58,537 bases of DNA from a virus (IMGVR_UViG_3300045955_000127:1-58537); one strand, 5' to 3'. Counted from the first letter of the stretch, positions 9,865 to 47,258 are shown. Program-made: numbers and translations. Notes: generated by a model not told the origin, from the letters alone.

Positions 9865-12800
9865 TTAATCGCCTCCGAAACTAGGATTTGCCACGGTTAG
9901 GCAGGGTGTCACATCGTGAGTGAAATTTACCCCGCCAACTATGCGCGGCTGGAAACAGAATTGATCTCCTACCACTACATCTGGATCTATCTTAATCAGC
10001 GCGATAAAGTTCGTCGTTGAATCCTCTGTTAAATCTACCGTAGGGTTAGTGGCCTCTTTGCCTATAACCGCGCCCGCAACAAAACTGCCATGTGGGTCGG
10101 TTGTTAAAGCTGACGTGATTGGCTCGGCGTCAAAGAGTGTTGTACCCGAAGCTACCCCGAACGCCACGCCTACAGCATTGGTGCAGGTAGAATTAAAGCT
10201 GCCCGTGGTAGAGTTAAATTCGTTGCCGGTACAGGTGACTTGTCCCGCTGTGGAGTTGTCTACAATATTTGTTCCATTGAGTCGGTTCTGGGTAAAGCCC
10301 AGAGAGGCGGGTATATGAGAGCCTGTACCGTTGGTTATGCGTCCGCCATTGATCGTGTTGTTACTGATAACCGTATTATCAAGTGAGTTTCGGATCGCGT
10401 CTTTTCCCGTGTCGGGTAGGCTAAATGAATTGGCATCTACGGTGACTTGAAAATTCTGGTACTCCTCCGCTACGCCATCATTGCCGAGGTTGATGCACCT
10501 GTTGAAATCACAATCTACAAAAACATTACTCTGTACCAGCCTGATCGAACCGGCTCCGGTGCCAGTTTGAATGAGCATGATACCCGTAGTGATATTTGTC
10601 CCATCGAAATAATTCCCGATGTAATTGACCGTGGCCCCAGCCGCGCTGCCTTTGTCGTCTATGCAATTCTCAGACAGGCACTGAGGAAACCAGTTGTAAG
10701 AAACCTCGTTGACTCCATCTATATCGCCAGGATCTGCTGCTGCTGCGTTGCCGATTTGCAGGTTATCCTCTGCATCGGTAGCAGTCTGGCTGATCTTGTT
10801 TCGGGTGATAAGAAGGTTCTTGGCCTTGCGCCCGCCCGAGCCCACATTGTTGCGGATGTAAACCGCCATCTGCCCCAATCCGCCAGTGACATTGTGGACA
10901 ATCGCGTTACCTCGGAGAATCGCTCCGTCCACATCGCCCGCGAATTTAACCGTAGAACGACTGCCAGTGCCTGATGCCGTGACGGTGTTATTCTCGTACT
11001 TACTGCCGGTTGCCCAGACTGTGCCGTTGAGAACCGTGGGTCGAAACAGCGCACACGCAGCGCCACTTGAGCAATTATGCTCGAAGCCCCTGACTTCGAC
11101 ATTGGCACCGATCTCAATCTCACCGACGATTTCTATCGCCTCGCAGTTGTAGGGTTTTAGAATCGTCGGATTGCCGCTTGTGCCCTCGCCTATTATCCAC
11201 GGGTTTCCAGCCACGGTAAAAGTCGCCCCACTGGTATTTCGCAGCAGGAATGTCCCGCCCGTAGAGTTTTCGAGCGCTGCTTCCCATCCGTCTGCGGTTG
11301 TCAAAACTGTGCCTGTGGTGGTGCAGGACTCGTTAGCCTCGCCATAAGTAAGGGTAAGCGGGTTGGGGTTTTGGGGGGGCAGCGTTGGAGGCCCCGATGC
11401 CGTAGTATCCGTCATTCTGGCATAGCTGCCGCCGTTGTGATTCGCCCAGATTTCAAACCCGGCTGGATCGCAATTACCGCCCGTACAGTCAACACCGAAA
11501 GTCAGCGCGGTGTAGCCGCCCCTCATAACAGATGCCGCCGTCGCCTTATCTTCGGGACCACGCCACTTGGGAGATGCCAGCGTGCCATCAAGATGAAACC
11601 AGCGAAAGTTGATCGTGGTCAGAACCGCCGCGCCACCACCGGCCACGTTGTTTTGAAAGGTTTGGAGCGCAAAGGATAGAATATCACTATCCAGACAGCC
11701 AAAAACCTCACCACCGATACACTCATTTCCGGTCAGCTGCGTGCCCGCTGCCCCCGGCCTGGTGTAAGATCCCTTGATTGTGTTGCCGGCTGCAACCGTA
11801 CCGGCGATTCCAATACTCACTCTGGCCGTTTGCGAGAGGGCACAGTTACTTTCAGTCTGTCCGACATCACCGCCGCCCGTGTCGATTGTGACGTTGAAAT
11901 GCTGCGTGGTGCAGCTCTTTAATCCAACACCACCCCTAATTGCCTGCGTAGGCACGCTAAAATTATACCTAAAGGTACCCGCGTCACCGTTTTCAACTGT
12001 GCCCGTGGAGAATCTAATTGTCTGGAAAGCACCAATGTCACAGGTATTCCCTGGGGCTATACACTGATAGCCGTTAGGGAGTCCGGTGCGTGTACCCTGA
12101 GCCAAAAGTGAAGATCCTTCACTTGGGGTAAACCTATTCTGAGAAACATCTACGAAGACGGTGGCATCGGTTCCAAAGTGATTATTAGAAACCGTGTGAC
12201 TGCCTCCAGATTCGTCAATGCTGTTATTTTCATTGTTTACACAAGCGTTGTTTCTAATAACGTGCCCGCTACCGAAATCAGAGTGTACCCCGATGCAAAA
12301 GTTTTGGTTATTGTAAATCGTGTTGTTATACACCTTGATGTTTAGGTTTCTGCCGGAATTAGTCGTGCCGGATACCGTGATTCCATCGCCGGTCGAGCCC
12401 GGCGTGATAGTGCCGTCCTTCAGAATATTGCCGTAAACTTCGGAGCTGTCGTTGTCCTGAAGTAAAATTCCCGTTTTGCCGTGTTGTAGAATGAAGTTGA
12501 AGCGAATCTTCAGCCGCACCATAGAGTTCGCGCCGGACTCGTTAGCGTTCGTCGCTTGAATGCCAAGCCCGATAGTGTCATGCACGTAATTTCGTTCAAT
12601 GATGCAATCGACACACTTGCCAAAATAAATTCCATGCCCCGGATTGCTGCTGGCGATGTTGCCGCAGTTAAACATTTGGTTGTTCACAACCTCTGTCAAG
12701 CTATTTGATGACGATAGGCCCGCCTGGGTGATAAAGCAGCTCGACCCGCTCGATGCAGTAGTTGTGGAGTCGTGAAATATAGAGTTGTACCATTTTAGAC

Positions 12801-13254
12801 CGACCGTGGAGCCTTGCGTCCCGCCGCAAAACACTAGAGACACGGAACAATCAAAATCAATATTGTCGAACGTGATCCAGCTGCGGCCATTTTGGACCAT
12901 TGCGGGGCCAGAGGTAGGACGTATAATTGCTGCTTGGTTAGAGTCCCAGCCGCGGACTATAGTTGGGTTGCTCTGTGTGCCCGAGGGAAAATTCTTGCTG
13001 TTGTTCGACCAGAATCCTTCGTTATAAGTTCCGGCTTTAATGTTTACAGTATCGCCGCTGGACATGCACAACCGCGCCTCTTCGATGGTATCGAAATGGT
13101 CGGCGTTGGCAGAGCCTGGATCGGTTGAACTTTCTGCGGCTCCGCAACTCGCAGCAGTTCCCCCCGGCTTAACCCAGTATGTTGCAGCGTTCGAAATCCC
13201 AACCGTCAGTATGTACAGAAAGAGCGTGAGTATGATTTCTCTTGTTATCTTCAT
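9865..13254 (-). CDS. Signal-peptide-bearing right-handed beta-helix (pectate-lyase-like) protein; putative receptor-binding/depolymerase
   Basis: MKITREIILTLFLYILTVGISNA|ATYWV; GDTVNIKAGTY; Asn-ladder repeats; DIGAFQ cap; a second beta-helix block; 30 Cys. Confidence 0.8.
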   Translation of the reverse strand: MKITREIILTLFLYILTVGISNAATYWVKPGGTAASCGAAESSTDPGSANADHFDTIEEARLCMSSGDTVNIKAGTYNEGFWSNNSKNFPSGTQSNPTIVRGWDSNQAAIIRPTSGPAMVQNGRSWITFDNIDFDCSVSLVFCGGTQGSTVGLKWYNSIFHDSTTTASSGSSCFITQAGLSSSNSLTEVVNNQMFNCGNIASSNPGHGIYFGKCVDCIIERNYVHDTIGLGIQATNANESGANSMVRLKIRFNFILQHGKTGILLQDNDSSEVYGNILKDGTITPGSTGDGITVSGTTNSGRNLNIKVYNNTIYNNQNFCIGVHSDFGSGHVIRNNACVNNENNSIDESGGSHTVSNNHFGTDATVFVDVSQNRFTPSEGSSLLAQGTRTGLPNGYQCIAPGNTCDIGAFQTIRFSTGTVENGDAGTFRYNFSVPTQAIRGGVGLKSCTTQHFNVTIDTGGGDVGQTESNCALSQTARVSIGIAGTVAAGNTIKGSYTRPGAAGTQLTGNECIGGEVFGCLDSDILSFALQTFQNNVAGGGAAVLTTINFRWFHLDGTLASPKWRGPEDKATAASVMRGGYTALTFGVDCTGGNCDPAGFEIWANHNGGSYARMTDTTASGPPTLPPQNPNPLTLTYGEANESCTTTGTVLTTADGWEAALENSTGGTFLLRNTSGATFTVAGNPWIIGEGTSGNPTILKPYNCEAIEIVGEIEIGANVEVRGFEHNCSSGAACALFRPTVLNGTVWATGSKYENNTVTASGTGSRSTVKFAGDVDGAILRGNAIVHNVTGGLGQMAVYIRNNVGSGGRKAKNLLITRNKISQTATDAEDNLQIGNAAAADPGDIDGVNEVSYNWFPQCLSENCIDDKGSAAGATVNYIGNYFDGTNITTGIMLIQTGTGAGSIRLVQSNVFVDCDFNRCINLGNDGVAEEYQNFQVTVDANSFSLPDTGKDAIRNSLDNTVISNNTINGGRITNGTGSHIPASLGFTQNRLNGTNIVDNSTAGQVTCTGNEFNSTTGSFNSTCTNAVGVAFGVASGTTLFDAEPITSALTTDPHGSFVAGAVIGKEATNPTVDLTEDSTTNFIALIKIDPDVVVGDQFCFQPRIVGGVNFTHDVTPCLTVANPSFGGD

Positions 13255-14321
13255 TGGAAAAATATCGGCGCTATGCGACGACGGCTCGACCCTGCCGCTG
13301 CCGGAATTGCTCTAATGGCATACCAGTAATAATCAACACCTGATTCGTTGACCCTGAGGTTTGTTCCCACTTCAAAACCATTGACTAAAAAATCCTGAAT
13401 CTGATCCGTTCCACACGTAGCCGTAGTTGCCACACATGACTCATCGCCGGAATTGTCCTTGAATCTAAAAGTCATCACGTTATTTGCTGTCGCACTATTG
13501 GCTTTCATCAAAAGAAATTCCGGTTGAAACCCAAGGGTTGTTATTTGCCTATCGTCGCTTGCATCGCCGGCGTAGGTGCCATCTATCGAGCTACCGCCGG
13601 CGTTTTTCATGGCCCAATAATGCACTGTATCAGTAGCGCCGTTGACAAAGCCGCTAGTGCCAACCTCAAAGCCGTTGGAATTTAATGCTTGAATCCTGTT
13701 TGATGTTGCGCACGATGCCCCGCTAGCTTGCGAGCAGGTCTGATCTCCGGTCAGTGCCGCAAATTTGAAAACAAAAACATCGCTGCTTGTTTCTGTCTGT
13801 ACGGCTACAAAATCGGGCTGAAAATCGTTGGCGTCGCTGGTGTCGGAAATATCAATGTCGCGCGCATCGAGACCATCTCCAGCATAAGTGCCCACGGCAA
13901 AATCATCGTTAACACCATCCTTGGCGAGCGCGAGATAAAAACACGTCACGCCGCTTGCGTTGACTTGATTGTCAGACCCTATCTGAAATCCGTTGGCGCT
14001 AAATGCCTGAATTCTGTTCGTCACGGGTCCAGCGTTTGTATTAAGAACAAGGGAAGCATCAGCTCCCATTGTTGCCGTGCTCCAAACTGCTTGTTCAGTG
14101 GTATTGCATTTGACAATTACCAATTCGGGCTGGAAATCCGTCACGCTTGGCGTCGTAGTGTCGGAAATATCTATGGTGCGGTTGTCTGTGGCGTTGCCGG
14201 TATAGGAGCCGCTGGCCATCAAGTAACCGAAGCTTGTTTCGGGAACGAAAACCGGGCACAATAAAAGAGCGGCTAGGAAGACGTTCCGAAGCCCCTGTTT
14301 CCTGGCAGGGATGCCGCGCAA
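13251..14321 (-). CDS. Repeat-containing putative virion protein with signal peptide (start uncertain; 5' end disrupted by an HNH insertion)
   Basis: Three repeats of G(S/T)YxG(N/D)xxDxRxI...FQP(E/D)...IQ...NGF(Q/E)(I/V)G. Candidate TTG14321 gives ...RNVFLAALLLCPVFVPETSFG|YLMASG. The upstream part of the listed ORF is antisense to the HNH. Confidence 0.7.
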   Translation of the reverse strand: MRGIPARKQGLRNVFLAALLLCPVFVPETSFGYLMASGSYTGNATDNRTIDISDTTTPSVTDFQPELVIVKCNTTEQAVWSTATMGADASLVLNTNAGPVTNRIQAFSANGFQIGSDNQVNASGVTCFYLALAKDGVNDDFAVGTYAGDGLDARDIDISDTSDANDFQPDFVAVQTETSSDVFVFKFAALTGDQTCSQASGASCATSNRIQALNSNGFEVGTSGFVNGATDTVHYWAMKNAGGSSIDGTYAGDASDDRQITTLGFQPEFLLMKANSATANNVMTFRFKDNSGDESCVATTATCGTDQIQDFLVNGFEVGTNLRVNESGVDYYWYAIRAIPAAAGSSRRRIAPIFFQ

Positions 14322-15016
14322 CTTACCCCAGGAATGCACGACAGGAGGTGCAATATGGCAGCTCATAACTTCAAAGACATTACGGGTCAGCAGTTCAGCC
14401 GCTTGAACGTATTGCGGCGCGCGCCCAATAACGCGCTTAACCAAGCCACGTGGCTCTGTGTATGTTCCTGCGGACGGCAAATTACTGTCCTCGGGAACAA
14501 GTTGCGCAGTGGTCATACTCGTAGCTGCGGCTGCATTAACGTCGAGCGATGGTTGCGCGAACGGACCACGCACGGATATTCCAAATCTCCTGAGTGGCGA
14601 ATTTTTCAGCACATGAGAGACCGTTGTAATAACCCGCGCTGTAAAAACTTTCGCGATTATGGCGGACGCGGAATTAAAATGCTCTTCTCTTCTTTTGAAG
14701 AATTTCTCGCTGAAGTGGGGCTGCGACCAACGCCGAAGCACTGGATTGAGAGAATATGCAACGATGGCCATTACGAATCGGGAAACGTGAAGTGGGCTAC
14801 CAAGATTGAGCAAGCCAATAATACCCGCGCGAATCATTTCATTACCTTCAAGGGAGAAACTAAGACGGTGGCGCAATGGGCTACGCAGTTGGGAATTAAC
14901 GTCGGCACGATCCATGCACGTATACATGCTGGCCGGTGGTCGCCTGACAGAGCTTTGTCCACCCCAACACTTATATATTGGTCAAGGCAAAAGCGTTCCT
15001 GGAACGCGAACAGGTA
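14226..15016. mobile_element. Homing-endonuclease insertion (about 791 bp) in a structural gene
   Basis: Removing it fuses signal peptide MRLIKALILAGLLWVTPAHA to YLMASGSY in frame; the junctions read TACCTG and TACTTG on the minus strand. Confidence 0.6.
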
Positions 15017-15017
15017 G
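14355..15017 (+). CDS. HNH homing endonuclease, antisense to the late operon
   Basis: DITGQQFSRLNV, WLCVCSCG, SCGC, YGGRGI, IERICNDGHYESGNVKWATKIEQANN; AGGAGG SD. Confidence 0.92.
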   Translation: MAAHNFKDITGQQFSRLNVLRRAPNNALNQATWLCVCSCGRQITVLGNKLRSGHTRSCGCINVERWLRERTTHGYSKSPEWRIFQHMRDRCNNPRCKNFRDYGGRGIKMLFSSFEEFLAEVGLRPTPKHWIERICNDGHYESGNVKWATKIEQANNTRANHFITFKGETKTVAQWATQLGINVGTIHARIHAGRWSPDRALSTPTLIYWSRQKRSWNANR

Positions 15018-15076
15018 GCATGAGCAGGAGTTACCCAGAGCAGCCCCGCCAGGATGAGGGCTTTAATAAGTCGCAT
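15011..15076 (-). pseudogene. Orphaned signal peptide (original 5' end of the 13251 gene)
   Basis: MRLIKALILAGLLWVTPAHA|YL, overlapping the end of the upstream gene, then running into antisense HNH sequence. Confidence 0.6.
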
Positions 15077-17696
15077 TGATACTAATCCCAATCAGGTGTA
15101 ATCCGGTAAACGCATCCTCATAGTCCGTCGCTGTCGCATCCACATCGCCGGTAAACGTCACCCAATCACCCGCTGCTGGAGTGTTAGCGATGGTGATCGG
15201 CGCCGTAGTACAGCTCATATAATCTTCAGTCTGGTTGTTGAACGTACACGTCGCCTGCACATTCGCCGCCGTCGGGTCTGTAACCGCCGCGAACTGGTTC
15301 CCCGGCGCGTAAGAATCCCCGCCCCAATCCACAGCGAAGTCATTGAGCGAAGCCGTAGCCGAGAACATGTGCATCGTCAGCGTAACCGTTCCAGCGTTCC
15401 ACGTTGCCGGCATTGGGAGCGAGAACTTAATGCGACAAGCGTTGTCGTCCGCAGGGTTTATAGTAAGAATGTCGTCGTTGGGTAGGGCTTTCTCAGTTGG
15501 TGTTTGGTCGGTGCAGCTCGCAGACCCCTTCATGTAGGCTGCTGGGATGAAAATAGACTTGACTGCTGCGGCAGTCGCAACATTGGCCCAGCTGCCATTT
15601 ACCCTAACCCTCAATGCGTCGGTGTCGGTGCGGTAGAACAAATCCCCATCGGTGACTTGCGCTGTTGGATCGGCTGCGCCGCTGCCCGGATTGACCCCCT
15701 GCGCACCGCCGACAAACTTATGGTTCCCCTGCATTGCCAGCGTGCCAGTGCCGGTCGCAGTAGCATCGGGGTTGGCTATAATGACCGCCGAGTCATCGTC
15801 CTCGTCCCAAAGTGCCCACGTAAACCCAACCGGAACTAAGGTTCTCCTGTCAGCATCTGTGCAGGGTTTCCACAACGGCCCATGCGTGGCATCGGTAAAT
15901 CCGCACATCGGCGTGACACCATCGCCAATCCGTACGGAGTTTCCTAGATTGTTAGCCCCAGTGAATGTATTGACGCCAGTGAAGGTATTATTTCCAGCGA
16001 GGGTAACATCGCCGGCGCCGCCTGCCGCCTGGTCCCAAACTGCCGCCGCCACCGTACTGTCGATCAAATCCCAGCATCTTTGATTCTCGGTTCCTGCGGA
16101 ATTACACCATCGCGTTACGCCGGCTATATAGCCATCGCCGGAGTCGTCATTTTCATCTGGATCGCGGGTTTCTAAAACTCGGGAGATTTTACAAGTGAGA
16201 TTGCCTTGAGCATCTATCGCGTGAGCGAAGACTCCAACATTGGTGCTCGTTATTGTGCAGTCCGTTGGATTACTGGCAAGACTCCCGGCGCTGCCGGTTG
16301 TGTTTGAATTTAGATAGGCAAGACTTTGGCTTGCTGTGCCGTCGTGAATCTTGGGTATTCCCGTGGTGGAATCTAGGCCAAATTCCCCCGGGGCCGCTGG
16401 AGTAAACCCCGCCGAGTTGGGCACTTCGATTGTTACCGCGCCGAAGTCCTGCTTGCCTGATGTATAGGTAGTAGCCGCCCCGCGGCTTACGTAGTCAGTG
16501 CCCGCCGCCGCCGCCGCTATATTCCCCCCGCCATCGGCTTTAACGATGCCCGTTATAGCGCCGACGATTGGGTCGCTCTCAGTGATCGTTACCGTGGTAT
16601 CTGGATCGTCATCGGTGACATTTACGGCAGTGCCGACAAAATTGAGATTGTTGCGCTGCGTGAGCGGCGTTCCCTCATTTTCGATCGTATGACCACCGCC
16701 AACCGACGTAGGGCAATTGGTGCCGTCTTCCTGGCAAACGCTGGTGCCTCCAATGGTAACATCGACGGTCGCCGCAACCGAACCAGAGCTGAGAGTGTCC
16801 GTACCTTTATCGTAAGTAAGGCTGCTATCCGTGCCACAAGCTCCGGCATCATTGAAGGTTACTTCGGTATCCGATCCGCAAGCGCCGCCACCTGAGCCCG
16901 GCGGGCGCGCAAAGCCGATCACCGAAGGCGTGCCGGTTATCTTCAAAGTTCCTGGCGTGCCCGAAGCGAGAACCGCCTTAACGGAAGTGGCGCCAGACAC
17001 GTTGCAGCGAAAGACGCCCTCCGCGGCCAGCCATGTCGTGCTGGTATAGGTCGTCCCGCCATCGAGTGAGTAACAATCGGTTGCCTCGAACTGCTGTCCA
17101 TCTGTACTGGTCTGGATAGAGAATGTAGAGCTATTAAAATCTCCGGTAGCGGTGATCAGCAGCACTTGACGGCCACCGATCGGATGAATGGGATTTTGCA
17201 CTGGCGTGGTCGAACTGTTGTAAAGCCCCATCGAAGGAATCACGTCTACCGGGTAGAGGCTGCCTACGGATCCGGCCGGCGTCACGTTCCCCACCATCGA
17301 TGCGTTCGCGCTAATCTTCACTGCTGTGGGCGAGCCGCTATTCAAAACGGCCTTCACCACTGCGGCGCCAGACACGTTGCAGCGCCATGTTCCGGGGGCA
17401 GTGATCCAGCCGTTAGCCGTAAATGTTGTAAGCCCGTCCATCGAGTAACAGTCTGTGTTAGCGTAGGTGATCCCATCGCCGCTGATTTGCACATGGAAGG
17501 TTGCGCTATTAAAAGTCCCCCCGGCGGTCACTTGGAGGACTTGCCACCGCCCGTTTAGGTTAAATGGGTTTACTGAGCCCGAGATCGTGTTGTTATAGAG
17601 CAGGAATTCGGTGAAGATCGGCCCCACTGTGGTTTGGCTGAAAACGGAAGTCGTTAAGCAGAAAACATAAAATAGAAGAGCAAAAAAAATCTTCAT
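15063..17696 (-). CDS. Tail-fibre-like protein with N-terminal signal peptide
   Basis: MKIFFALLFYVFCLTTSVFS|Q; duplicated N-terminal beta domain; fibre motifs GSDTEVTFNDAG, TIENEGTPLTQRNNLNFVG, ITGIVKADG..AGTDY, LAGNNTFTGVNTFTG, DGDLFYRTDT. Confidence 0.8.
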   Translation of the reverse strand: MKIFFALLFYVFCLTTSVFSQTTVGPIFTEFLLYNNTISGSVNPFNLNGRWQVLQVTAGGTFNSATFHVQISGDGITYANTDCYSMDGLTTFTANGWITAPGTWRCNVSGAAVVKAVLNSGSPTAVKISANASMVGNVTPAGSVGSLYPVDVIPSMGLYNSSTTPVQNPIHPIGGRQVLLITATGDFNSSTFSIQTSTDGQQFEATDCYSLDGGTTYTSTTWLAAEGVFRCNVSGATSVKAVLASGTPGTLKITGTPSVIGFARPPGSGGGACGSDTEVTFNDAGACGTDSSLTYDKGTDTLSSGSVAATVDVTIGGTSVCQEDGTNCPTSVGGGHTIENEGTPLTQRNNLNFVGTAVNVTDDDPDTTVTITESDPIVGAITGIVKADGGGNIAAAAAGTDYVSRGAATTYTSGKQDFGAVTIEVPNSAGFTPAAPGEFGLDSTTGIPKIHDGTASQSLAYLNSNTTGSAGSLASNPTDCTITSTNVGVFAHAIDAQGNLTCKISRVLETRDPDENDDSGDGYIAGVTRWCNSAGTENQRCWDLIDSTVAAAVWDQAAGGAGDVTLAGNNTFTGVNTFTGANNLGNSVRIGDGVTPMCGFTDATHGPLWKPCTDADRRTLVPVGFTWALWDEDDDSAVIIANPDATATGTGTLAMQGNHKFVGGAQGVNPGSGAADPTAQVTDGDLFYRTDTDALRVRVNGSWANVATAAAVKSIFIPAAYMKGSASCTDQTPTEKALPNDDILTINPADDNACRIKFSLPMPATWNAGTVTLTMHMFSATASLNDFAVDWGGDSYAPGNQFAAVTDPTAANVQATCTFNNQTEDYMSCTTAPITIANTPAAGDWVTFTGDVDATATDYEDAFTGLHLIGISINATY
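16989..17384. repeat. Direct repeat marking an internal domain duplication
   Basis: Identical 21-mer GGCGCCAGACACGTTGCAGCG at 16989-17009 and 17364-17384 (RCNVSGA in both domains). Confidence 0.9.
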
Positions 17697-17703
17697 AACA
17701 GAT

Positions 17704-18618
17704 TTACCTTCTGTCGATATCTAGCCCAAGACCGAAAATGCTGTTGGATGGCGATGCGCCACTCCATTGCGCCGTGATATCCAAATCTTGAACGATCGAA
17801 GAATCGGCCCCGCTGGCAGCGATTCTGCTCAGGGTAAATAGATTGGCTATCCCTCCGATGTTTAACGATGACGACTCGAGAAATCCCAATGAGGAAGTCG
17901 ATTGTGAATTGGCGGAATTTCGAGCGTGCAGACGCGACCGTAACGCTACCCCGACATTAGCAACTAGGCCGCCCGTGGGGTTCGCTATCGGCAACGTGAA
18001 TAATTCAACACCAGCGTAACGCAGCCGGATGGTCACCGTAGCTGCCGCCACAATCCCGATGATCTCAAAGTCGCAGTTGATATGAAGAAAACGATTTGTG
18101 CTAAGAAGCCCAGCCGCGATCTGTTTTGAATAAAGATCAGTTTCGCTGGCGGTGTTCGTTACATCGGGCTCGCTAACGTCTTTGATTAAAGCCGCGCTGT
18201 CAATCCGGACATTGCCTCCCGAGGGATTGACGGCTTCGCTGCCATTGCCATTGATAAAATTTATCAGGAGCTGCGATTGCAGGTTGACGCCGTTTGCCTG
18301 GATTGTGGCTCCAGACAAAGAGCCCTCAAAGACAGTGCCAGCCAGCAACGCCGCGATGCTCCCCGTTGCCGACCCCGGCACGATTCCCGTAACCGGCATC
18401 CCTGTACCGATGGTTACCGAAACGATCGCAGTCTGAGGCAATGCAATCGGGCTCAATGCCCCGCTTGAATTCGAGATCGTCGAGGCGATGCTTACAGCGA
18501 TCACGGACCCGCCGATGATTTGCTGCGGAACGCTGATGACGACAAGCGTATTCGGGAGAGCGACCCCGTTCGCGTTATAGAGCGTGCCCGAGACTATGCA
18601 AGTTCCTGGAGCTGGCAT
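17704..18618 (-). CDS. Putative fibre/anchor protein (no signal peptide)
   Basis: CIVSGTLYNANG Ig-like N-terminus; VTNTASETDL...LDITAQW C-terminal domain typical of phage fibres. Confidence 0.65.
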   Translation of the reverse strand: MPAPGTCIVSGTLYNANGVALPNTLVVISVPQQIIGGSVIAVSIASTISNSSGALSPIALPQTAIVSVTIGTGMPVTGIVPGSATGSIAALLAGTVFEGSLSGATIQANGVNLQSQLLINFINGNGSEAVNPSGGNVRIDSAALIKDVSEPDVTNTASETDLYSKQIAAGLLSTNRFLHINCDFEIIGIVAAATVTIRLRYAGVELFTLPIANPTGGLVANVGVALRSRLHARNSANSQSTSSLGFLESSSLNIGGIANLFTLSRIAASGADSSIVQDLDITAQWSGASPSNSIFGLGLDIDRR

Positions 18619-18623
18619 AAGAG

Positions 18624-19001
18624 TTAACCCCCCGGAAAATACTTCTCTGCTACCGGATTCCAAAAGAAAGTTTTTGCCGTGCCGGCGGCCAGTGCGACCG
18701 CCGCGGCGATATTGCCGCTGGTCCCCGTACTGAAACCATCGATCGCCAATAGGACGACCGGGCCAAAATCCTCGCGCGCTTCTATCGTTTGTATCGTCGT
18801 GGATCCGGTAACAGGTTGGAGGCGGCGTGTCGGCGCTATTGTCGTGGCCGAAGCGATTGAGGCGAACGGTTCTCGGTCTATCGGATTCAAAAAGTCGCGC
18901 GTGTATTTTAAGAATTTTTCCCAGTATTCGAAAAAATCCTTCACCCGCTCATTCAAAGCAGGATTGCCGACGCGAAAGGATGGCGGATCGTAGCGCGGCA
19001 T
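18624..19001 (-). CDS. Putative tail protein
   Basis: SIASATTIAPT..VTGSTTIQTI..TGTSGNIA motif; TAATG coupling. Confidence 0.65.
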   Translation of the reverse strand: MPRYDPPSFRVGNPALNERVKDFFEYWEKFLKYTRDFLNPIDREPFASIASATTIAPTRRLQPVTGSTTIQTIEAREDFGPVVLLAIDGFSTGTSGNIAAAVALAAGTAKTFFWNPVAEKYFPGG

Positions 19002-19315: not shown

Positions 19316-19317
19316 TT

Positions 19318-19566
19318 TCAGGTGATCCTTGTAATGTCCGTGATATCTGCGATCAAAAGCAGCCTACCCTCTACTACGCCGCCGCCCCCCCACAAACTCT
19401 CTGGCATTCCCCAGAGTAATTGTTGCTGGTCGTCCTGCCCTAATGCGCCCGGCGAAACCGGCAACCCCGGTTCCCAGACCTGGCACCACTCCATAAAGGC
19501 CAACTTTAGATTGTTGACAGCTTCCGGCCCAGCTCCGCCGCCTTGAAATAGGAGTAAAAGGCTCAT
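19318..19566 (-). CDS. Small virion-associated protein (MSLLLLFQGGG type)
   Basis: GGAG SD; ATGA coupling; DDQQQLLWG motif. Confidence 0.6.
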   Translation of the reverse strand: MSLLLLFQGGGAGPEAVNNLKLAFMEWCQVWEPGLPVSPGALGQDDQQQLLWGMPESLWGGGGVVEGRLLLIADITDITRIT

Positions 19567-20318
19567 CTCCCTACTCCCATCAGCGACATAGTGGAGCCGC
19601 CTGCCGCTGCCCCCGCTACCTCCGCTATGGCAAAATGGATAAACGCCCTGTCATCTGTAGCGCCAGAGGAATAGCCTACCGATCTGCTTCCGCTCCCCGG
19701 CGTGGTTTCGCGGCCCATCATCATCACACGCGATCCTACGTCCATGTCATGGAGATGGGTGCTATTAGTTCCAGCCGAGGGTAAGTCCGCCAGCCCAGAG
19801 CGACCACAGACTAATCGAAGGGCCGTCACCGCGCCCGAATCAATTGCCTGTTCGGCGAGTGTGCCGTCCTCTTCCAAAAGTACACGGGTTCCTACCTCTT
19901 CCGTATCGCCCCCTGCGGTAAAGGTCACGGCGACCGCATAAGCCTCATTGGCGCTATTGTCTCTTGTGACAACCACAGAGGCGGGATCATCTGTCGGTAC
20001 GGATCCACCTAAAAACCAGACGGTCGCCGTAGCAAATTCCCCTATTGTATCTTGCGCCACGGTTCCAAGCCTCGCCAGCGGCACCCCAACATAAGTGACT
20101 GCGCTCACAAGAGTTGGGGTATCGTCGTCATTCCCCATAACACACACGGCAACTCCTCTAGGAGTACCCACGGGGTCATGATCCCATGTAAAACTCGCCT
20201 CGCTAGTCGAGGGCGTTGTCGCGGTATGCGATTCACTAGCAGCGTCAAAGGCAACAACCGCCCACGCGGGACGAGCAATCAATAGGGCGACAAACAAGAC
20301 TGCAAGTCGTTTCATCAT
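19563..20318 (-). CDS. Signal-peptide-bearing beta-sandwich protein
   Basis: MMKRLAVLFVALLIARPAWA|VVAFD; C-terminal tail GGSTMSLMGVGR. Confidence 0.75.
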   Translation of the reverse strand: MMKRLAVLFVALLIARPAWAVVAFDAASESHTATTPSTSEASFTWDHDPVGTPRGVAVCVMGNDDDTPTLVSAVTYVGVPLARLGTVAQDTIGEFATATVWFLGGSVPTDDPASVVVTRDNSANEAYAVAVTFTAGGDTEEVGTRVLLEEDGTLAEQAIDSGAVTALRLVCGRSGLADLPSAGTNSTHLHDMDVGSRVMMMGRETTPGSGSRSVGYSSGATDDRAFIHFAIAEVAGAAAGGSTMSLMGVGR

Positions 20319-21892
20319 GGCGGCGATACCTCATTGAAGCTTGCATTCTCGTCGCCTATCTTTATCGAGTCCATGTAATGAATAAGCGTATCGTCTGGGT
20401 TAGGATTTTGCAGGTTCCACCACGATTTATAAATCCCGAACCTGACAATGCTACTCTTGTTGCACGCAGGGAAGGTGCCGTCACACACCATATTAGGCCC
20501 ATTTTGAGTAACTACCTTTGAACCGTTTTTCCAAATTTCCAGCAATCCCGTAGGCACGCCGCCTGACCCAGTTGACCAAATCACATGCACAACAAATTTC
20601 GTCCATTGCCCTTTGGCAATTGCGCCCAAGTTGTATGATGTCTCCGTTACAGTGCTATTGGTATTGCACCCCGTCGTGCCGTCAGCAAAATTCACCGCTA
20701 AAAGGTTGTCATTCGGCAGTACACGGAAGGCCAGATGCTGCCCGGTAAATGTGTCGCAGGCATCATTTGTGCGGTGCCACTGATAAACAATGGTTCCATT
20801 TGGGTCATTCGTGTTATCGTCCCATGTCGAATCAAAATAAATAGCGAATCCGTACCATCTTTCAGTCCCATTTGTCTGCGTGGCGTTCCAGCCTAGCATG
20901 GTCTTACCGGGGGTATTGCCGGATACGGGATCGCCATCGCTTGATTCAAACCGCACTGATTGTGTACCGTCATTGGCTTGTGCACTAGAAAGCGCGTGAG
21001 AATGTGCACAACAACCATTAGCATCTATCAAGTCGGGGTCCGCGCCGCTTAAAACAGTCCCGGTCTCAAAATTTGCGGTGTGGGTGATATTATCGCTCGT
21101 TGGCGGGGGGTCGGTATCATCGGGCGGACGGATATCAACGACTTGATGCACGTATGCCCGGGCATCAGGCTTATCCCAGGTCATCGTCACGCTCGCGGCT
21201 CCGGCTTTTGTTGACGCGCCGCTCTGACGATTGGTGAGTGATGCGTTTACGCCCGCCGACTTTTGCCAGAGTGAGCCTTGCCCGGCTCCCGGTGCAATAG
21301 TTTCATTATTCGGCACAGTGGTGCAAAGATGGTCAAAGACTATTCGCTGTGTCGCGCTTGAAATCATCGTTGATGGGGTTGTGCCGGTGCCAAAGGACGC
21401 CGAAATGGTCCCGAGCGGGGTTGTGCCATCCACGTCCTGAAAGTGAAAAATACCAAACGCCATGTTTTGCGCTGCGGTGGCAGACACAGTAAATGTCTGT
21501 GCTCCGGCTGTAGGGGCAATTAAACGATAGATCGCGGCCCGGACGGTTGGCGCAGTGCCCGTTACCTCATTTGCATCTGCGCTGTAACGCGTAAACGCTC
21601 CGTCCTCGCTCGAAGATACGGAGATATCGTGAGTGGAACTGCGGTGACAGACGCCAGCAATCGTTAAATCCGTATTGGCGGGTACGACTTCATCGACTTC
21701 CAGCTGCGTGCAATTTTCGCAGCCGTAGGGATCGGGCGGGTCAGGTGGATCAGGTGGATTTAGCTCTATGTCGCTCCGAAATGGACGTGGCCCGGACAGC
21801 GCCCTATCAGCCAGGTCCCTAATGACCTGCGCGGTAACAATCTGCGCCGCTAGGCCGATCAGGAGAATTATGCCGATAATGAAATATCGCAT
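20315..21892 (-). CDS. Signal-peptide-bearing protein with C-terminal polysaccharide-lyase (heparin lyase I-like) domain
   Basis: MRYFIIGIILLIGLAAQIVTA|Q; ERWYGFAIY, IVYQWH, KGQWTKFVVHVIWS, LEIWKNG, FGIYK and YMDSIKIG motifs. Confidence 0.75.
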   Translation of the reverse strand: MRYFIIGIILLIGLAAQIVTAQVIRDLADRALSGPRPFRSDIELNPPDPPDPPDPYGCENCTQLEVDEVVPANTDLTIAGVCHRSSTHDISVSSSEDGAFTRYSADANEVTGTAPTVRAAIYRLIAPTAGAQTFTVSATAAQNMAFGIFHFQDVDGTTPLGTISASFGTGTTPSTMISSATQRIVFDHLCTTVPNNETIAPGAGQGSLWQKSAGVNASLTNRQSGASTKAGAASVTMTWDKPDARAYVHQVVDIRPPDDTDPPPTSDNITHTANFETGTVLSGADPDLIDANGCCAHSHALSSAQANDGTQSVRFESSDGDPVSGNTPGKTMLGWNATQTNGTERWYGFAIYFDSTWDDNTNDPNGTIVYQWHRTNDACDTFTGQHLAFRVLPNDNLLAVNFADGTTGCNTNSTVTETSYNLGAIAKGQWTKFVVHVIWSTGSGGVPTGLLEIWKNGSKVVTQNGPNMVCDGTFPACNKSSIVRFGIYKSWWNLQNPNPDDTLIHYMDSIKIGDENASFNEVSPP

Positions 21893-22816
21893 TTAGAATT
21901 GAGCGTAACTGATATCGACCCCGATATTCGCAGCTCCCGATTGAGTCACACATAGAGCATCGCCGCCTGCATCGGATTTGAGCACCATCCCAACACCCGA
22001 CCCGCGTGAAATACCTACGGTTGCGCCTGCGGTAAGAATCATGCCGGATGATCTATCCGCCTGACTTGTAGCGCAATCAGTTCCCGTGCCGGATACGAAC
22101 TTAACCGAGGTTTGAGCATCGCCTTCGCTGACAATGGAAAAACTACAAACATAAATAACAGTTGATCCCGACAGGGCAACGATTTCGGTCGTTGTCGCTG
22201 TGGTCATGTTAAGAAAAGCATTATTAGTGCATTTGATATCCGCATTGCCGTTGGCCCCTTGGGTCTGTACGGCCACAGTTCCGTCGGAAGTAGTTTTAAC
22301 ACGCCGCGCCGTGGAGCCGCCGTCGTCCGATCCAGAGATTTGAATGTCGTCGATGGTATCGCTGAGGGCAGTAATTAGATTAACTAACGTCAGTCGCAGG
22401 TTAGACGGCACCCCCACTGCTCGCCCCGTCACGGTCACGGTCCCGGCTGAGTAACCGGATATTCGCGCTCTGACGGCTTGCAGGCCCGCGACAGGGATTT
22501 CCCATATCGTGACGCCCGAAGTGGTTACTGTCGTATCAAGCACCTGAGTTCCCAGTTGCACGGCATTGAGAGCGGAATAGTTTGTGGCGTCCCCCGTTCC
22601 CTCGAAATTGACAGTTGTGCCACCGGAGCATGAGGCGCAGTTGACGGTAACAATGACGGTGGACATGCCGCTAACTGTTAAAGCCGTGCCGTTGCCGTCG
22701 GCTGTTGCGGCGTTTTGTAGAGTACCCGAGATAATCGAACCTTCAATCGTAACAGGCTGTTGCGACCAAACATGAACCGGCCACAAAAGAGCAATGATTA
22801 AAATTAGTTTTTTCAT
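21893..22816 (-). CDS. Signal-peptide-bearing two-domain beta protein
   Basis: MKKLILIIALLWPVHVWS|Q; VAGLQAVRARIS jelly-roll; C-terminal SGTGTDC domain. Confidence 0.75.
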   Translation of the reverse strand: MKKLILIIALLWPVHVWSQQPVTIEGSIISGTLQNAATADGNGTALTVSGMSTVIVTVNCASCSGGTTVNFEGTGDATNYSALNAVQLGTQVLDTTVTTSGVTIWEIPVAGLQAVRARISGYSAGTVTVTGRAVGVPSNLRLTLVNLITALSDTIDDIQISGSDDGGSTARRVKTTSDGTVAVQTQGANGNADIKCTNNAFLNMTTATTTEIVALSGSTVIYVCSFSIVSEGDAQTSVKFVSGTGTDCATSQADRSSGMILTAGATVGISRGSGVGMVLKSDAGGDALCVTQSGAANIGVDISYAQF

Positions 22817-23808: not shown

Positions 23809-24453
23809 CTATGGCCCCGTTACCCACTCGCCCTTTGTAACCGTACCGCCCGCAGAGCTTGTGGATTGTTTTTGATCTACTGTACTTTCATCGTCGGCGT
23901 ATAGTTGCGTGGTCGTGCCATCATTGTCCTTTTTGTTCCGCCAAGACTTGTAGATGTAATTTATTTTCGCGGCGAGGGTGGTTGTCGCTGCCGGCGCTCC
24001 CTGCCCCGGCTCCGCATAGGTATCGGTCGCTAGGGCATCCACAACCTCGGCGTTAACTTGGGCGGCACTTAGATCGTTTAGCGCCGCTACGAGATTAAAC
24101 TGTTTAGGCACGGGCGATGCCGCGCTAGTTGTTACCATCACATAAACAACCGCGTACCACGCGCCCGTGGCGAATACGGCATCAGCAATATCAAGCCTGT
24201 AAAGTCCCGGCGCTAGGGTATTGGAAACCTCTTTCAACCCCCAATCTGTATGAGCGTCCGTAAGCGCAGATAAGTCGCTCAGGCTTGATGTTACATCGGT
24301 AACGACAACATCATTATCTGTTTCTACCCTGGTATAAGATACAGTTAAATCGGAGGAATCCAATCCAGTCGCACCACTGCCATCGGTTTGTGCCGAGTCG
24401 GGAATAAAAACCAGAATCGTTCTGTCGGTTGTGCCTATGAGAATATCTTCCAT
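23809..24453 (-). CDS. Putative virion protein
   Basis: APGLYRLDIADAVFA and VNAEVVDALATDTYAE motifs; coupled to neighbours. Confidence 0.7.
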   Translation of the reverse strand: MEDILIGTTDRTILVFIPDSAQTDGSGATGLDSSDLTVSYTRVETDNDVVVTDVTSSLSDLSALTDAHTDWGLKEVSNTLAPGLYRLDIADAVFATGAWYAVVYVMVTTSAASPVPKQFNLVAALNDLSAAQVNAEVVDALATDTYAEPGQGAPAATTTLAAKINYIYKSWRNKKDNDGTTTQLYADDESTVDQKQSTSSAGGTVTKGEWVTGP

Positions 24454-25568
24454 TAGACCAACCCGCCCGACATACTACGTGGATAATTTAGTCCGCCGCC
24501 ACTCGATACGTGTTGCACGGCACCTTTATCTAAATTCCCACCGGGATACGCGCCGCCCCAGACGTTATCAACGTCCAGCGGAGCAAAGTACACAAAGCGG
24601 TTAGCGAAGGTGTTGCTGCCGGACTTGGCAAAGGGGGTAGAGCCGAGACTTTCGTTGTCGTCGGTGAAGACGGTGTCGGAATCCAAATCATAGGCAGTTG
24701 CACAATTAAAAACTGCGTTATTTGCAACCGCCCAGTTGTCCATTGTCGTAGTCCAGTCGTTTAGAGAAATGCCTATTCCCCCAGTACCACTGAAACCTTC
24801 TATTAAATTGTTGAACACGACCACGGAGCCGTTAGTATCGAAGTAAATCCCTTTCCCTGTCCCGCTCGAAGATAAAATAGAGTTATGGGCGATAATTATA
24901 TTGGCGTTTCCTCCAAAACACTGAATCCCATCATTAGCACTGCTAGCCTTTAGGGTAATTATGTTTCCCCAGATCGTTCGGTTAGATTCAGCCGCTCTGA
25001 TCGCCATACCGTTGCTAAACGTGTTGGTCGGCCCCTCGAAAAACCAACTACCAAATACATTCGCGTGCAACGCCACGCCCCCGCAATTAGAAAAGCTACA
25101 CCCGAAAACCCCACCATGATTTGCCCCGCCGTTATTATCTAAGGCCGAACCGTTGCTATTGTCGAAAAAAACACAATCTTGAAAATAATTTCTCCCATCA
25201 CCATCAACAATCACTATCTTTTCTGTGCCAGTATTGTGAAGATTCAGCCCTATAGCCGACACATGGTTTTTGTTCCAAAGAGCAAAATTGCCGTTGTTTC
25301 CGTCTAAACCCCCGGCACCGTCTGGCCCGCCGACCCAATTTCTCAAAACTGTTTTAGCTGTAAGCGTGGGACTCCCCCATGTAGTAAAGTCCAGGGACGC
25401 CGATAAAACGTCCTCGCCGCTCACAAAAATTTTATCACCGTTAGTCGTATCCCTGGTTACGTTATCCAAGACGTGCTGTACGGTTTGAAACGGGTTGCCG
25501 CTTGAACCGTCGCCAGTCGCGTCGTCACCTGACGTAGTGGCGACGTATGTTTCTGTAAGCGCACCCAT
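24453..25568 (-). CDS. Beta-helix protein (no signal peptide)
   Basis: YVATTSGDDATGDGSSGNPFQTVQ start; Asn ladder; DKGAVQ cap; tail GGGLNYPRSMSGGLV. Confidence 0.75.
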   Translation of the reverse strand: MGALTETYVATTSGDDATGDGSSGNPFQTVQHVLDNVTRDTTNGDKIFVSGEDVLSASLDFTTWGSPTLTAKTVLRNWVGGPDGAGGLDGNNGNFALWNKNHVSAIGLNLHNTGTEKIVIVDGDGRNYFQDCVFFDNSNGSALDNNGGANHGGVFGCSFSNCGGVALHANVFGSWFFEGPTNTFSNGMAIRAAESNRTIWGNIITLKASSANDGIQCFGGNANIIIAHNSILSSSGTGKGIYFDTNGSVVVFNNLIEGFSGTGGIGISLNDWTTTMDNWAVANNAVFNCATAYDLDSDTVFTDDNESLGSTPFAKSGSNTFANRFVYFAPLDVDNVWGGAYPGGNLDKGAVQHVSSGGGLNYPRSMSGGLV

Positions 25569-25931
25569 TTACCCTAGCATCGCATTGATGCCACTGGCCT
25601 TAGTTGCCTGTGCCCTGAAGGGCGGGTTGGGTACGCCAACACTTGCGCCGCCATTACCCAAATCAACCACCTGACGGACGGACTCCATGAGGTTAAACAA
25701 TGTCGCTAATTCTGTCGCCGTCATATCATCGGCTCCCGCTAAACCGGACTTATTCGGCACAACTGCGCCAGCATCAAGCGTGGCGAAGATTGCTAGCCCG
25801 TTGGCATCATCGGCTATGGCTTTTAGGTGATTAAACACCCGCGCCACTTCGCCAGAGCCGGCGCGTACAAAGTTTACGAGATTGTCAACAATCCCTTGAT
25901 CCTGGGGGGATAATTCTGTGTATAGTGCCAT
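25569..25931 (-). CDS. Hypothetical protein
   Basis: AAGGAG SD before MALYT. Confidence 0.65.
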   Translation of the reverse strand: MALYTELSPQDQGIVDNLVNFVRAGSGEVARVFNHLKAIADDANGLAIFATLDAGAVVPNKSGLAGADDMTATELATLFNLMESVRQVVDLGNGGASVGVPNPPFRAQATKASGINAMLG

Positions 25932-25950
25932 TGTAAAAACTCCTTTAATC

Positions 25951-26484
25951 TCAAAGCCCGTGATCCCTTTTCCACTTGCTAAAGGCGTCTTGAGTTTTCT
26001 TAAATTCTTCATCGAGCGCTTTGTTACGAGCGATTTTTTCTTTTTCCGCTTTAGCGTGCGTCTCTATTTTTGCGCGATAATCGGCGTCGGCTTTACGGTT
26101 CATATCCTTCGCCTGCTTTTCCATGGTCAAGATCGAACCTTCCAGTTCCGCAATCTTATCATTGAGGAGTTCGATTTCGCCGCCAAGTCGCGCTCCGAGG
26201 CCTTCAAACTCCCGCTCCTTCGCTGCTTTTTTCATCGCGAATTCCCGAGCGAGTTCTGCTTCGCGCTCTGCGTTGGCTTGCGTCAGGGAGTTAAGAGCCG
26301 CACGTTTGGCCGCAATCTGCTTCTCGATATCTGCCAACTCGCGCTCTCCGGACTCCTTTTTTTGCTTGATGCGGACATACTCACGGAGGCCGACGCCTGC
26401 CAGCGCCCGCAGTTTCACGTCCTGCTCGAGCTGGCGCGCTGCGTCCAATATTTGGCTGTCTGTCAACTCTGTTGGTTGAGCCAT
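25951..26484 (-). CDS. Coiled-coil protein
   Basis: Heptad E/K/A-rich sequence. Confidence 0.7.
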   Translation of the reverse strand: MAQPTELTDSQILDAARQLEQDVKLRALAGVGLREYVRIKQKKESGERELADIEKQIAAKRAALNSLTQANAEREAELAREFAMKKAAKEREFEGLGARLGGEIELLNDKIAELEGSILTMEKQAKDMNRKADADYRAKIETHAKAEKEKIARNKALDEEFKKTQDAFSKWKRDHGL

Positions 26485-26487
26485 TGC

Positions 26488-26844
26488 TTACCCCTTTCTG
26501 ATCGCGATCGCCATCCCGATCGTTACTTTAGTGTCCGCGCTCCCGTCTACAATGCGCGGCATTATATGCGCCAATAGATCCATGGACCGTTTGATGGATG
26601 GTTGATCGAATACGAGATTGTTTCGTTCACCATCATTGATGTAATTAAATCGTCCCGGAATAATGCCTCCAAGAATTTCCACGCGGGCGCCTGCTAGGTC
26701 GCCTACCACATGAAAAGTTCTCTGCGTCGGTAGCCCGTAGAGTTGAAGATGCCCGTGCGGTTGTCCTTCGTCGCCGTTTCTAAGATCCTCCCAAATTACC
26801 ACCGAGCCGTCTTGGGTCAGAGTTTCCTTGAATAAAACCTGCAT
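26488..26844 (-). CDS. Small beta-rich virion protein
   Basis: GGAGG SD; RTFHVVGDLAGARVEILG..IMPRI jelly-roll-like pattern. Confidence 0.65.
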   Translation of the reverse strand: MQVLFKETLTQDGSVVIWEDLRNGDEGQPHGHLQLYGLPTQRTFHVVGDLAGARVEILGGIIPGRFNYINDGERNNLVFDQPSIKRSMDLLAHIMPRIVDGSADTKVTIGMAIAIRKG

Positions 26845-26852
26845 CGTGCCTC

Positions 26853-27320
26853 CTACTGAGTGTACCCGCCAATGAACACATCGATCGTGTTAGTAGCCAC
26901 GCCGATCAAACAGATCGCGTGTCCGGTCGTTACCTTGATCGGCGTCGGCAAGGGGATGGCGTTTAGGCCGTTGGCCGCGATCGGTGCGTTGAACCTTTCC
27001 GATCCGTCGCCGATATTAGGGAATACGTTGGTAGTCTCCGTGGCGCAATTTGTGCCCGTACCGGATCTAAGCGCATAAGTGCCCGAAGTGCCCGTGCTTG
27101 TCTGGACGGCGATTAGGGTGATGTAATGACTTTGCGTGGACACGCCCGGCACGGCTTGGCATTGCGTCAGAGTCGCATCGATAGCCTGAAGAGAGCATCC
27201 GAACGCCGTCGGCGGCGTGGTCGGAATTACTCCCACCGCACCAAGATAATTCGGCGTACTCTGGCCGCTCGCCACCAATGGGAGCGCCAGAAGAAAAAGC
27301 GCCAAGAACAATTTTTTCAT
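26853..27320 (-). CDS. Signal-peptide-bearing small beta protein
   Basis: MKKLFLALFLLALPLVASG|Q; SGTGTNC..GHAIC; 4 Cys. Confidence 0.75.
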   Translation of the reverse strand: MKKLFLALFLLALPLVASGQSTPNYLGAVGVIPTTPPTAFGCSLQAIDATLTQCQAVPGVSTQSHYITLIAVQTSTGTSGTYALRSGTGTNCATETTNVFPNIGDGSERFNAPIAANGLNAIPLPTPIKVTTGHAICLIGVATNTIDVFIGGYTQ

Positions 27321-32071: not shown

Positions 32072-32100
32072 TGAATATCGTAAAACGGAAAACGTGTCAA
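32072..32100 (-). promoter_or_regulatory. Promoter/operator upstream of the MCP gene
   Basis: TTGACA-CGTTTTCCGTTTTACGA-TATTCA (weak -10). Confidence 0.5.
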
Positions 32101-45989: not shown

Positions 45990-45992
45990 GGA

Positions 45993-47252: not shown

Positions 47253-47258
47253 ATGGTA

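Follow-up and report, generated by a model that had tools for sequence, protein, structure and literature searches.

Why should genes in the tail operon of a tailed phage encode proteins that begin with export leaders? The question is raised by the tail and fibre block (9865-27320) of IMGVR_UViG_3300045955_000127:1-58537 (hereafter, the window), an entire virus record that spans 58,537 bases and is estimated to be 75% complete; in this block, a first-pass annotation had pointed to seven genes with signal peptides and even numbers of cysteine (Cys) residues. The explanation that we consider the best, with a rough probability of 0.55 for the whole, is that the leaders are functional Sec signals of the signal peptidase I type on late receptor-binding or polysaccharide-cutting proteins. 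The observations behind it are the leaders themselves, the operon coupling, the domain content, the Cys statistics and the recurrence in relatives.

Leader-bearing genes of the tail block

Leaders were called with a heuristic score of our own that combines the n-, h- and c-regions with the -3/-1 rule (a charged n-region, an h-region of about 7 to 16 uncharged hydrophobic residues, small residues at -3 and -1, and no Pro around the site), with a threshold of at least 5 for a call. This threshold was reached by 7 of the 67 open reading frame (ORF) calls of the window, and six of the seven are genes of the block (A, C, H, I, J and Q). The features on which the argument turns are listed below, with lengths in amino acids (aa) and overlaps in nucleotides (nt).

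28737..29666, minus strand: SU10-type tail adaptor (PF24175, 28.4 bits versus a cut-off of 27)
27320..28726, minus strand: nozzle-like tail protein (phrog_3287, 2.1e-09)
26853..27320, minus strand: Q, 155 aa, leader score 5.89, 4 mature Cys; its start overlaps the nozzle stop by 1 nt
24453..25568, minus strand: M, 371 aa, leaderless, 5 Cys (phrog_4577 'tail protein', 4e-06)
21893..22816, minus strand: J, 307 aa, leader score 5.08, 6 mature Cys
20315..21892, minus strand: I, 525 aa, leader score 6.87, 10 mature Cys; C-terminal polysaccharide lyase domain
19563..20318, minus strand: H, 251 aa, leader score 5.58, 2 mature Cys
18624..19001, minus strand: E, 125 aa, leaderless; recurs near nozzle and D-like genes in relatives
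17704..18621, minus strand: D, 305 aa, leaderless; the first ~95 residues are a conserved transthyretin-like fibre N-domain
15063..17696, minus strand: C, 877 aa, leader score 5.33, 18 mature Cys; fibre-like, with nine sequential close Cys pairs
15017..15076, minus strand: orphan leader start (ATG 15076, score 4.97), overlapping the C stop by 14 nt
14334..15017, plus strand: HNH homing-endonuclease gene (phrog_374, 2.8e-54)
13251..14321, minus strand: B, DUF7483 fibre-like body, 6 Cys (PF24299, 5.7e-17; phrog_24898 'tail fiber protein', 1.4e-26)
9865..13254, minus strand: A, 1129 aa, leader score 5.53, 30 mature Cys in close pairs; right-handed beta-helix

Six of the seven signal-peptide genes claimed at first pass are intact (starts at 27320, 22816, 21892, 20318, 17696 and 13254, all on the minus strand); the seventh (14321/15076) is split or uncertain. 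Reading by eye revealed neither a lipobox with Cys at +1 nor a twin-arginine motif in the n-region in any of the window leaders, and no further hydrophobic segments that would mark membrane proteins were found, except for one internal stretch in J. Two phages served as controls: 0 of 48 ORFs were flagged in Paracoccus phage KLEP18-1, which is related and shares the adaptor-nozzle layout, and 2 of 73 in MW202512, both small and neither of them a fibre gene.

On the minus strand, the genes are ordered adaptor, nozzle, Q, P, O, N, M, L, K, J, I, H, G, F, E, D and C, followed beyond C by the HNH gene, which is on the plus strand, and then by B, A and a small fn3-like gene. The leader genes are accordingly part of a tail module, being located downstream of adaptor and nozzle, co-oriented with them and tightly coupled, with gaps of -14 to +16 nt between neighbouring block genes (the surroundings of the HNH gene excepted). 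No excess over shuffled sequences was detected in the block for either promoter-like sites (11 versus 15.7) or terminator-like sites (25 versus 22.3).

Membership in fibre or spike families was established for A (PF13229), C (through its repeats) and B (PF24299, phrog_24898 and the tail fibre protein gp37 of Pelagibacter phage HTVC011P, to which B is 28% identical over 93% of its length). The PF13229 match of A (30.9 bits versus a cut-off of 25.9) begins at residue 187, and a word search returned A alone, with no homologues. The glycine-rich fibre repeats and a knob-like stretch of C are held in common with 10 database proteins, so that the tail-fibre motifs noted earlier in this protein are borne out by homologues with the same repeats; C also shows a weak match to Mtd_N (0.0032, below the cut-off). 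By its domain match, I is a polysaccharide lyase: residues 295-511 match PF14099 at 1.3e-29 (104 bits versus a gathering cut-off of 29.9), and a leader is present in all five PF14099 homologues found, in the fifth by eye, behind a mis-called start; the four that were called by score have 10, 4, 10 and 12 mature Cys. No Pfam or PHROG family was identified for Q, J or H. Over its C-terminal 100 aa, J shares 37% identity with hypothetical proteins from two Synechococcus phages, and in the ESM Atlas, J is found among viral clusters at 0.94, with XepA as a weak, sub-threshold lead only. The viral-contig scan found no relatives of J, H or the B body, Q had no match in isolated phages, and tblastn searches with C, Q, D and E against 50,697 phage records yielded no match.

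The Cys counts of the earlier annotation were reproduced in full: the mature regions of A, B, C, H, I, J and Q contain 30, 6, 18, 2, 10, 6 and 4 Cys, respectively, an even number in 7 of 7, and the interleaved leaderless genes mostly have 0 to 2, with a single gene reaching 5 (0, 0, 0, 5, 0, 1, 1, 0, 0, 2 and 0 in the eleven leaderless block genes). Cys make up 2.2% of the leader-bearing proteins (76 of 3449 residues) versus 0.6% of the leaderless group that consists of the eleven block genes, adaptor and nozzle (17 of 2822), a 3.7-fold enrichment over the leaderless neighbours, and 0.17% of nine other structural proteins (7 of 4134). Pairing was assessed from linear spacing only. Compared to random placement, short and long Cys gaps alternate in A (p=0.0002) and C (p=0.0011), the pattern expected for sequential local pairs; the alternation is not significant in I (p=0.11), J (p=0.09), B (p=0.08) and Q (p=0.36). 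The statement that the Cys mostly form neighbouring pairs thus stands for A and C and falls short of significance for the four smaller proteins. As a separate observation, the five proteins encoded at 41658-49211 on the minus strand, including the 1443-aa internal protein, have 0 Cys among 2509 residues, in sharp contrast to the leader proteins.

At the locus of the seventh gene, both starts proposed at first pass exist; leader and body are parted by the HNH gene, and the leader of the body itself is weak or absent. The cleavage-site codons of the orphan leader abut the stop codon of the plus-strand HNH gene, and the B body resumes 797 nt downstream of this leader. The start of B is uncertain, TTG 14321 giving a weak leader (score 4.39) and ATG 14219 giving none. 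Both the orphan-leader junction and the B-body junction read Tyr-Leu after the predicted cleavage site. We infer that a homing-endonuclease cassette has inserted into a fibre gene, parting its leader from its body. A group I or group II intron around the HNH gene was considered and rejected, given that no Rfam model matched at E<=1 and only a chance-level small RNA match was obtained. Contigs of four other soil runs cover one or both ends of the cassette and include no joint that skips it, rare variants being invisible in contigs. A second, truncated HNH-like ORF is located at 38684-39193. Furthermore, short contigs derived from other sequences, present in all four soil runs, match only the 34 bases at 13277-13310, at the A/B junction (3 differences), and then diverge, marking a short conserved or repeated element.

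A fibre N-domain with and without leader

The N-domain of D provides a broader view of the trait. A profile of this domain retrieved 215 clusters at E<=0.001 among 1.84 billion representatives; all counts that follow are for the best 150 of the 215 clusters (50% identity level). A leader directly precedes the N-domain in at least 74 of the 150, and the domain starts at Met1 in 44, an upper bound for the leaderless state because at least one of these resembles a truncated leader. Among the remaining members, the N-terminus is extended without a leader call in 17 (several of these extensions resemble leaders with a wrong start), and in 15 the domain is internal. Relative to profile position 1, 64 of the 74 leader-bearing members have their predicted mature N-terminus between -4 and +7, and 38 of the 44 leaderless ones have Met1 between -2 and +3, so that the exported form, once mature, is predicted to start at the point where the leaderless one does. 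The leaders have a median predicted length of 21 and Ala at -1 in 68 of 74, a residue that the score itself favours. Most of the 72 leader-bearing members compared with Pfam (two short ones were left out) match nothing; the matches are to pectate-lyase-like families (5), Big_1 (2) and, once each, Laminin_G_3, Peptidase_S74, Beta_helix, Gly_rich_2 and CarboxypepD_reg.

The variable parts behind the N-domain differ in their Cys content depending on the leader. Where the N-domain is followed by 150 residues or more, the variable part has an even number of Cys in 60 of the 67 proteins with a leader (binomial p=1.3e-11) versus 14 of the 25 without one (p=0.69), and the Cys density of this part is 1.57% versus 1.13% (Mann-Whitney p=1.4e-5). 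This contrast is the strongest indication that the leaders deliver proteins to an oxidising compartment.

An AlphaFold2 model of D, built from a 25-row alignment, has pLDDT >90 for residues 1-95, which form an all-beta sandwich, and is poor elsewhere. The best matches in a Foldseek comparison of the domain with the PDB were weak (E 4e-3 to 1.5e-2) and included the neck of phage XM1, the tail tips of lambda and Bxb1, and the neck fibre of cyanophage A-1(L), followed by transthyretin-like domains of dioxygenases; a sequence search of the PDB with the D-domain profile found nothing. A complex prediction for E with the D N-domain scored 0.00, which is no verdict either way, and the ESM Atlas values for the D-like protein of the closest relative (0.77-0.78) are leads only.

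Homologues of the window nozzle, which are 32-47% identical and adjoin adaptor genes, were identified on 13 contigs, namely eleven loci, a 56-kb contig of a metagenome-assembled genome (MAG) and locus L022; in KLEP18-1, the position homologous to the window gene is annotated as nozzle. Leader-scoring genes follow the nozzle in 3 of the 13 contigs (L002, the MAG contig and L022). L002, the closest relative, has five such genes, one of which ends in a Peptidase_S74 chaperone (PF13884, 4.7e-11); the MAG contig has a run of four, with 2, 11, 2 and 18 Cys; and L022 has one, with 9 Cys, which is its only D-like gene. In addition, the isolated temperate Synechococcus phage Yong-M4-211 (OM868079.1; host Synechococcus sp. 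PCC 7002) carries two consecutive leader genes (5872-8659 of locus L024), flanked by the fibre block on one side and by lysis genes, with an L-alanyl-D-glutamate peptidase gene, on the other; they code for proteins of 138 aa and 786 aa, the longer of which has 10 Cys. A literature search for the two Synechococcus phages found no paper.

According to all-against-all BLAST, a conserved set in the order adaptor, nozzle, E-like, D-like is shared by five sequences (the window, L003, L004, L022 and the MAG contig); in some of them the set is interrupted by further genes. The E-like gene directly follows the nozzle in L002, L022, the MAG contig and L004. In the window, L003 and L022, the next gene downstream of the E-like one is D-like; in the others the E-like gene lies a short way upstream of it. 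The D domain starts at Met1 in the window and L003. It lies behind a leader in L022, the MAG contig and both paralogues of L002, and no leaderless D-like gene was seen in these three; that all D-like genes seen there bear leaders argues that a conserved tail component is exported. Leader-bearing Cys-rich genes were also observed outside the post-nozzle block, at 2322-2960 of L013 (6 Cys), 2385-2843 of L022 (8 Cys) and 2244-3338 of L009 (10 Cys), in positions by the portal gene, by capsid genes, or after fibre-like genes.

Proposed export and docking, and competing explanations

The sequence statistics make export with folding outside the cytoplasm quite probable. The translocation itself, the cleavage, the disulfides and all post-export steps are what we infer from the patterns described above. 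Late in infection, the leader-bearing proteins would be translocated out of the cytoplasm and would fold there, in the window phage mostly with sequential local disulfides, and heads and tail cores would be assembled in the cytoplasm, so that the cytoplasmic and exported pools would meet only once lysis merges the compartments. Members with an anchor domain (D-like fibres in the relatives; in the window perhaps C and B) would then dock on the tail, and enzymes that lack an anchor (the lyase I and the beta-helix protein A) may act free on the surface polysaccharide of the host, from the periplasmic side and after release.

The location of the N-domain right behind the leader, the syntenic fibre position and the apparent absence of a leaderless paralogue in three relatives favour attachment to the virion after lysis, and for the members with a conserved anchor the odds are in favour of docking on the tail. 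A two-compartment virion in the full sense, with Sec-exported fibres docking through their N-domain at lysis and particles infectious at or after release, is a tentative and, on balance, somewhat doubtful extension. Conversely, the lack of a common anchor in the leader proteins of the window, the enzymatic nature of one of them and the free gain and loss of the leader favour periplasmic or released enzymes. Both roles may exist, for different members.

Several observations weigh against the favoured explanation. The leader calls come from our own heuristic rather than from SignalP. No leader protein of the window has a D-like anchor or a common N-terminal domain (BLASTP of H versus I and of J versus C was not significant) by which it might dock. 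The homologues of the C repeats are leaderless in 5 of the 5 that were read, and gp37 of HTVC011P starts at Met, with neither a hydrophobic segment nor a leader. Recurrence in homologous loci, proposed at first pass as a check, is partial: leaders are present in L002, the MAG contig, L022 and Yong-M4-211, and the other 10 of the 13 nozzle contigs show no post-nozzle leader gene in the stretch available, which in three cases is only 4-5 kb. A tree of the N-domain was built from 74 leader-bearing and 40 leaderless members, without four leaderless rows that had short coverage or did not start at Met. It requires at least 18 changes of the leader state, compared to a mean of 33 with shuffled labels, and supported branches force at least 4 of the changes. 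Such repeated switching suggests that the orthologues work with or without a leader, and it also fits a free enzyme that is independent of location.

The Cys data, too, are not of one kind. The whole mature D-like proteins have an even number of Cys in only 21 of 71 cases; because the N-domain usually has 1 or 3 Cys (mostly 3 in leader-bearing and mostly 1 in leaderless members), the parity of the whole protein is lost and at least one Cys would stay unpaired. This unpaired Cys might serve in an intermolecular link or in metal binding. Close to the start of the N-domain, within a few residues, a Cys is present in 49 of the 67 members with a leader and in 22 of the 25 without one. Moreover, the mature leader-bearing fibres of L002 contain 0, 1, 0, 0 and 0 Cys, and fibres that are nearly Cys-free imply that disulfide folding is not the general or the only reason for export. 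The original proposal of export for oxidative folding agrees with the leaders, the fibre- and depolymerase-like nature of these late proteins and the Cys statistics; as an account of the whole reason for export, it fails on L002.

The exported proteins could also never become parts of the virion, acting instead as free depolymerases or binders on the surface polysaccharide or receptor of the infected cell itself, which would ease the escape of progeny and block superinfection, with the leaderless D, E and M as the true tail appendages. This is compatible with the lyase nature of I, whose lyase-only homologues of 289-312 aa are leader-bearing as well; with the organisation of A, where sequence that, by eye, looks typical of a beta-helix start comes only a few residues after the leader and no known anchor domain was found before the Pfam match; and with the presence of leaderless fibre candidates in the window (D, E, M, K and L). 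Bacterial precedents are the exported beta-helix enzymes VexL (PMC6003464) and WceF (PMC7949094), which show that cutting of surface polysaccharide from the periplasm is feasible. A docking domain would be needless for a free enzyme, however, and the conserved N-domain is kept right after the leader in at least 74 clusters; L002, L022 and the MAG contig show no leaderless D-like paralogue that could take over the role of the fibre; and the modules of C and B are typical of fibres, not of enzymes. As an explanation for the entire set, we regard free action as less likely than the favoured one, though not remote.

That the hydrophobic segments are not export signals at all, the proteins folding in the cytoplasm and joining tails there, where the segment would persist in, for instance, a membrane-active or bundling role, would be in line with the rule that tailed-phage structural proteins normally assemble in the cytoplasm, and with the existence of orthologues with and without the segment and its repeated switching. 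This possibility appears very improbable in view of the canonical leader architecture in the D-like family, the bias towards even Cys numbers that is confined to leader-bearing members, the Cys enrichment over leaderless neighbours and the lack of further hydrophobic segments in all window leader proteins except J. Finally, the genes could be lysogenic-conversion genes (morons), expressed from the prophage, with products that the lysogen displays or secretes: an integrase is encoded by the phage, and leader-bearing morons are known in tail regions, as exemplified by lom and bor of lambda. The lysogen-surface display that had been offered as an alternative at first pass is hardly tenable given the tight gaps to late structural genes and the lack of promoter or terminator excess, so that transcription units of their own are not indicated; the sizes of up to 1129 aa, the fibre domains and the recurrence as a syntenic fibre gene in relatives also argue against it, and a moron origin is the least credible of the explanations considered.

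The phage and its parallels among known systems

Judging from its gene content, the window phage is a temperate podovirus because, in addition to adaptor and nozzle, it encodes a portal, a capsid protein, a terminase and an integrase. These and the other features outside the block are as follows.

window-encoded: P22-type portal (PF16510, 8.5e-67)
window-encoded: major capsid protein (PF13252, 5.3e-48; phrog_334, 4.1e-61)
window-encoded: large terminase (phrog_38)
window-encoded: integrase (PF00589)
within 41658-49211, minus strand: internal protein, 1443 aa
54972-55319, minus strand: thermonuclease-like protein, 115 aa, leader score 5.32; the seventh leader call, outside the fibre block

The last of these genes, near a putative lysis region, matches an endonuclease family (phrog_452, 6.1e-12) and, weakly, the SNase family of Pfam; its product is a predicted phage-encoded exported nuclease. 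The capsid protein matches 253 of 50,697 isolated-phage records, all at less than 60% identity (best 39%), which places the phage at a distance from isolated phages. Contigs of several soil metagenome runs match the window at >=99%. The only relative in genome collections is the MAG contig mentioned above, from a MAG labelled Candidatus Acidiferrales, and a scan of genome contigs with the nozzle alignment found no relative. This contig looks phage-derived from end to end, so that its binning is weak evidence on the host; among 401 genomes of the phylum of this MAG, the D-domain profile hit the MAG itself only and none of the 400 others. L002 has a lipoprotein-like gene after a cell-wall hydrolase gene, which, judged by eye, suggests a diderm host. 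Within the structural module of the window, adjoining the capsid gene, genes for a GHMP-kinase, a family-2 glycosyltransferase and a fused family-1 glycosyltransferase/methyltransferase are encoded at 32097-35599 on the minus strand; similar genes are present in L003 and MW202512, and they possibly function in sugar modification of the virion or the host surface.

A search of the literature did not bring up any tailed phage (Caudoviricetes) whose fibres or spikes are described as leader-bearing. Classical podovirus fibres and tailspikes, such as P22 gp9 and T7 gp17, are leaderless and fold in the cytoplasm. The native state of the P22 tailspike is reported to contain no disulfides (PMC3357383). 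The proteins described here resemble these classical fibres and HTVC011P gp37 in their position after adaptor and nozzle, in their beta-helix, fibre-repeat, S74 and DUF7483 modules, and in the combination of a conserved N-terminal domain with variable C-terminal parts. Among phages of other kinds, the receptor-binding pIII of filamentous phages has a Sec leader and folds in the periplasm with disulfides before it joins the virion. The gIII signal peptide is mentioned in PMC9402515. Inoviruses, however, are assembled by extrusion through the envelope, whereas tailed icosahedral phages are assembled in the cytoplasm and exit by lysis.

Caudoviricetes are known to use the host Sec system for late proteins before lysis, a feature that the lysis proteins have in common with the proteins considered here: the signal-peptide endolysin Lys44 of fOg44 and the signal-arrest-release (SAR) endolysins (PMC6116005) are exported, as is the T4 antiholin RI (PMC8385771). 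The lysis proteins differ in being effectors or regulators, one or two per phage, whereas six or seven fibre- or depolymerase-like proteins are involved here. VexL and WceF, the exported bacterial beta-helix enzymes that act on capsule or exopolysaccharide, belong to host biosynthesis clusters, are not phage-encoded and are not linked to a tail operon, and the tailspike-like WceF uses Tat (PMC6003464, PMC7949094).

The nearest architectural parallel is cellular and comes from the mosaic adhesive trimer (MAT) fibres of Bdellovibrio bacteriovorus. All 21 MATs are described (PMC10769870) as having a beta-rich domain of ~130 aa immediately after the signal peptide, followed by variable, tail-fibre-like trimeric modules, with or without Peptidase_S74. 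The D-like family of the relatives has the same layout, which the leader-bearing genes of the window itself do not show; the N-domains are likened by architecture, not by sequence. As described in the same source, MATs are encoded by chromosomal genes of a predatory bacterium and serve its own surface or vesicles, whereas the present genes lie in podovirus tail operons beside adaptor and nozzle.

The morphogenesis of tailed phages is taught as a cytoplasmic process, and a class of exported fibres or spikes would mean another route for part of host recognition. The trait is not confined to one phage: the D-like family spans at least 74 leader-bearing clusters, and soil phages as well as a cultured cyanophage provide related cases. 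For annotation, leaders that are currently taken as an argument against a structural role would have to be read differently, and for expression, some phage depolymerases and receptor-binding proteins may need periplasmic, oxidising conditions. Should the products act as free enzymes after all, periplasmic depolymerases encoded in tail operons would represent a new form of receptor destruction from within. Exported fibres would also bear on models of the timing of progeny infectivity and on how cellular fibre adhesins, the Bdellovibrio MATs among them, arose.

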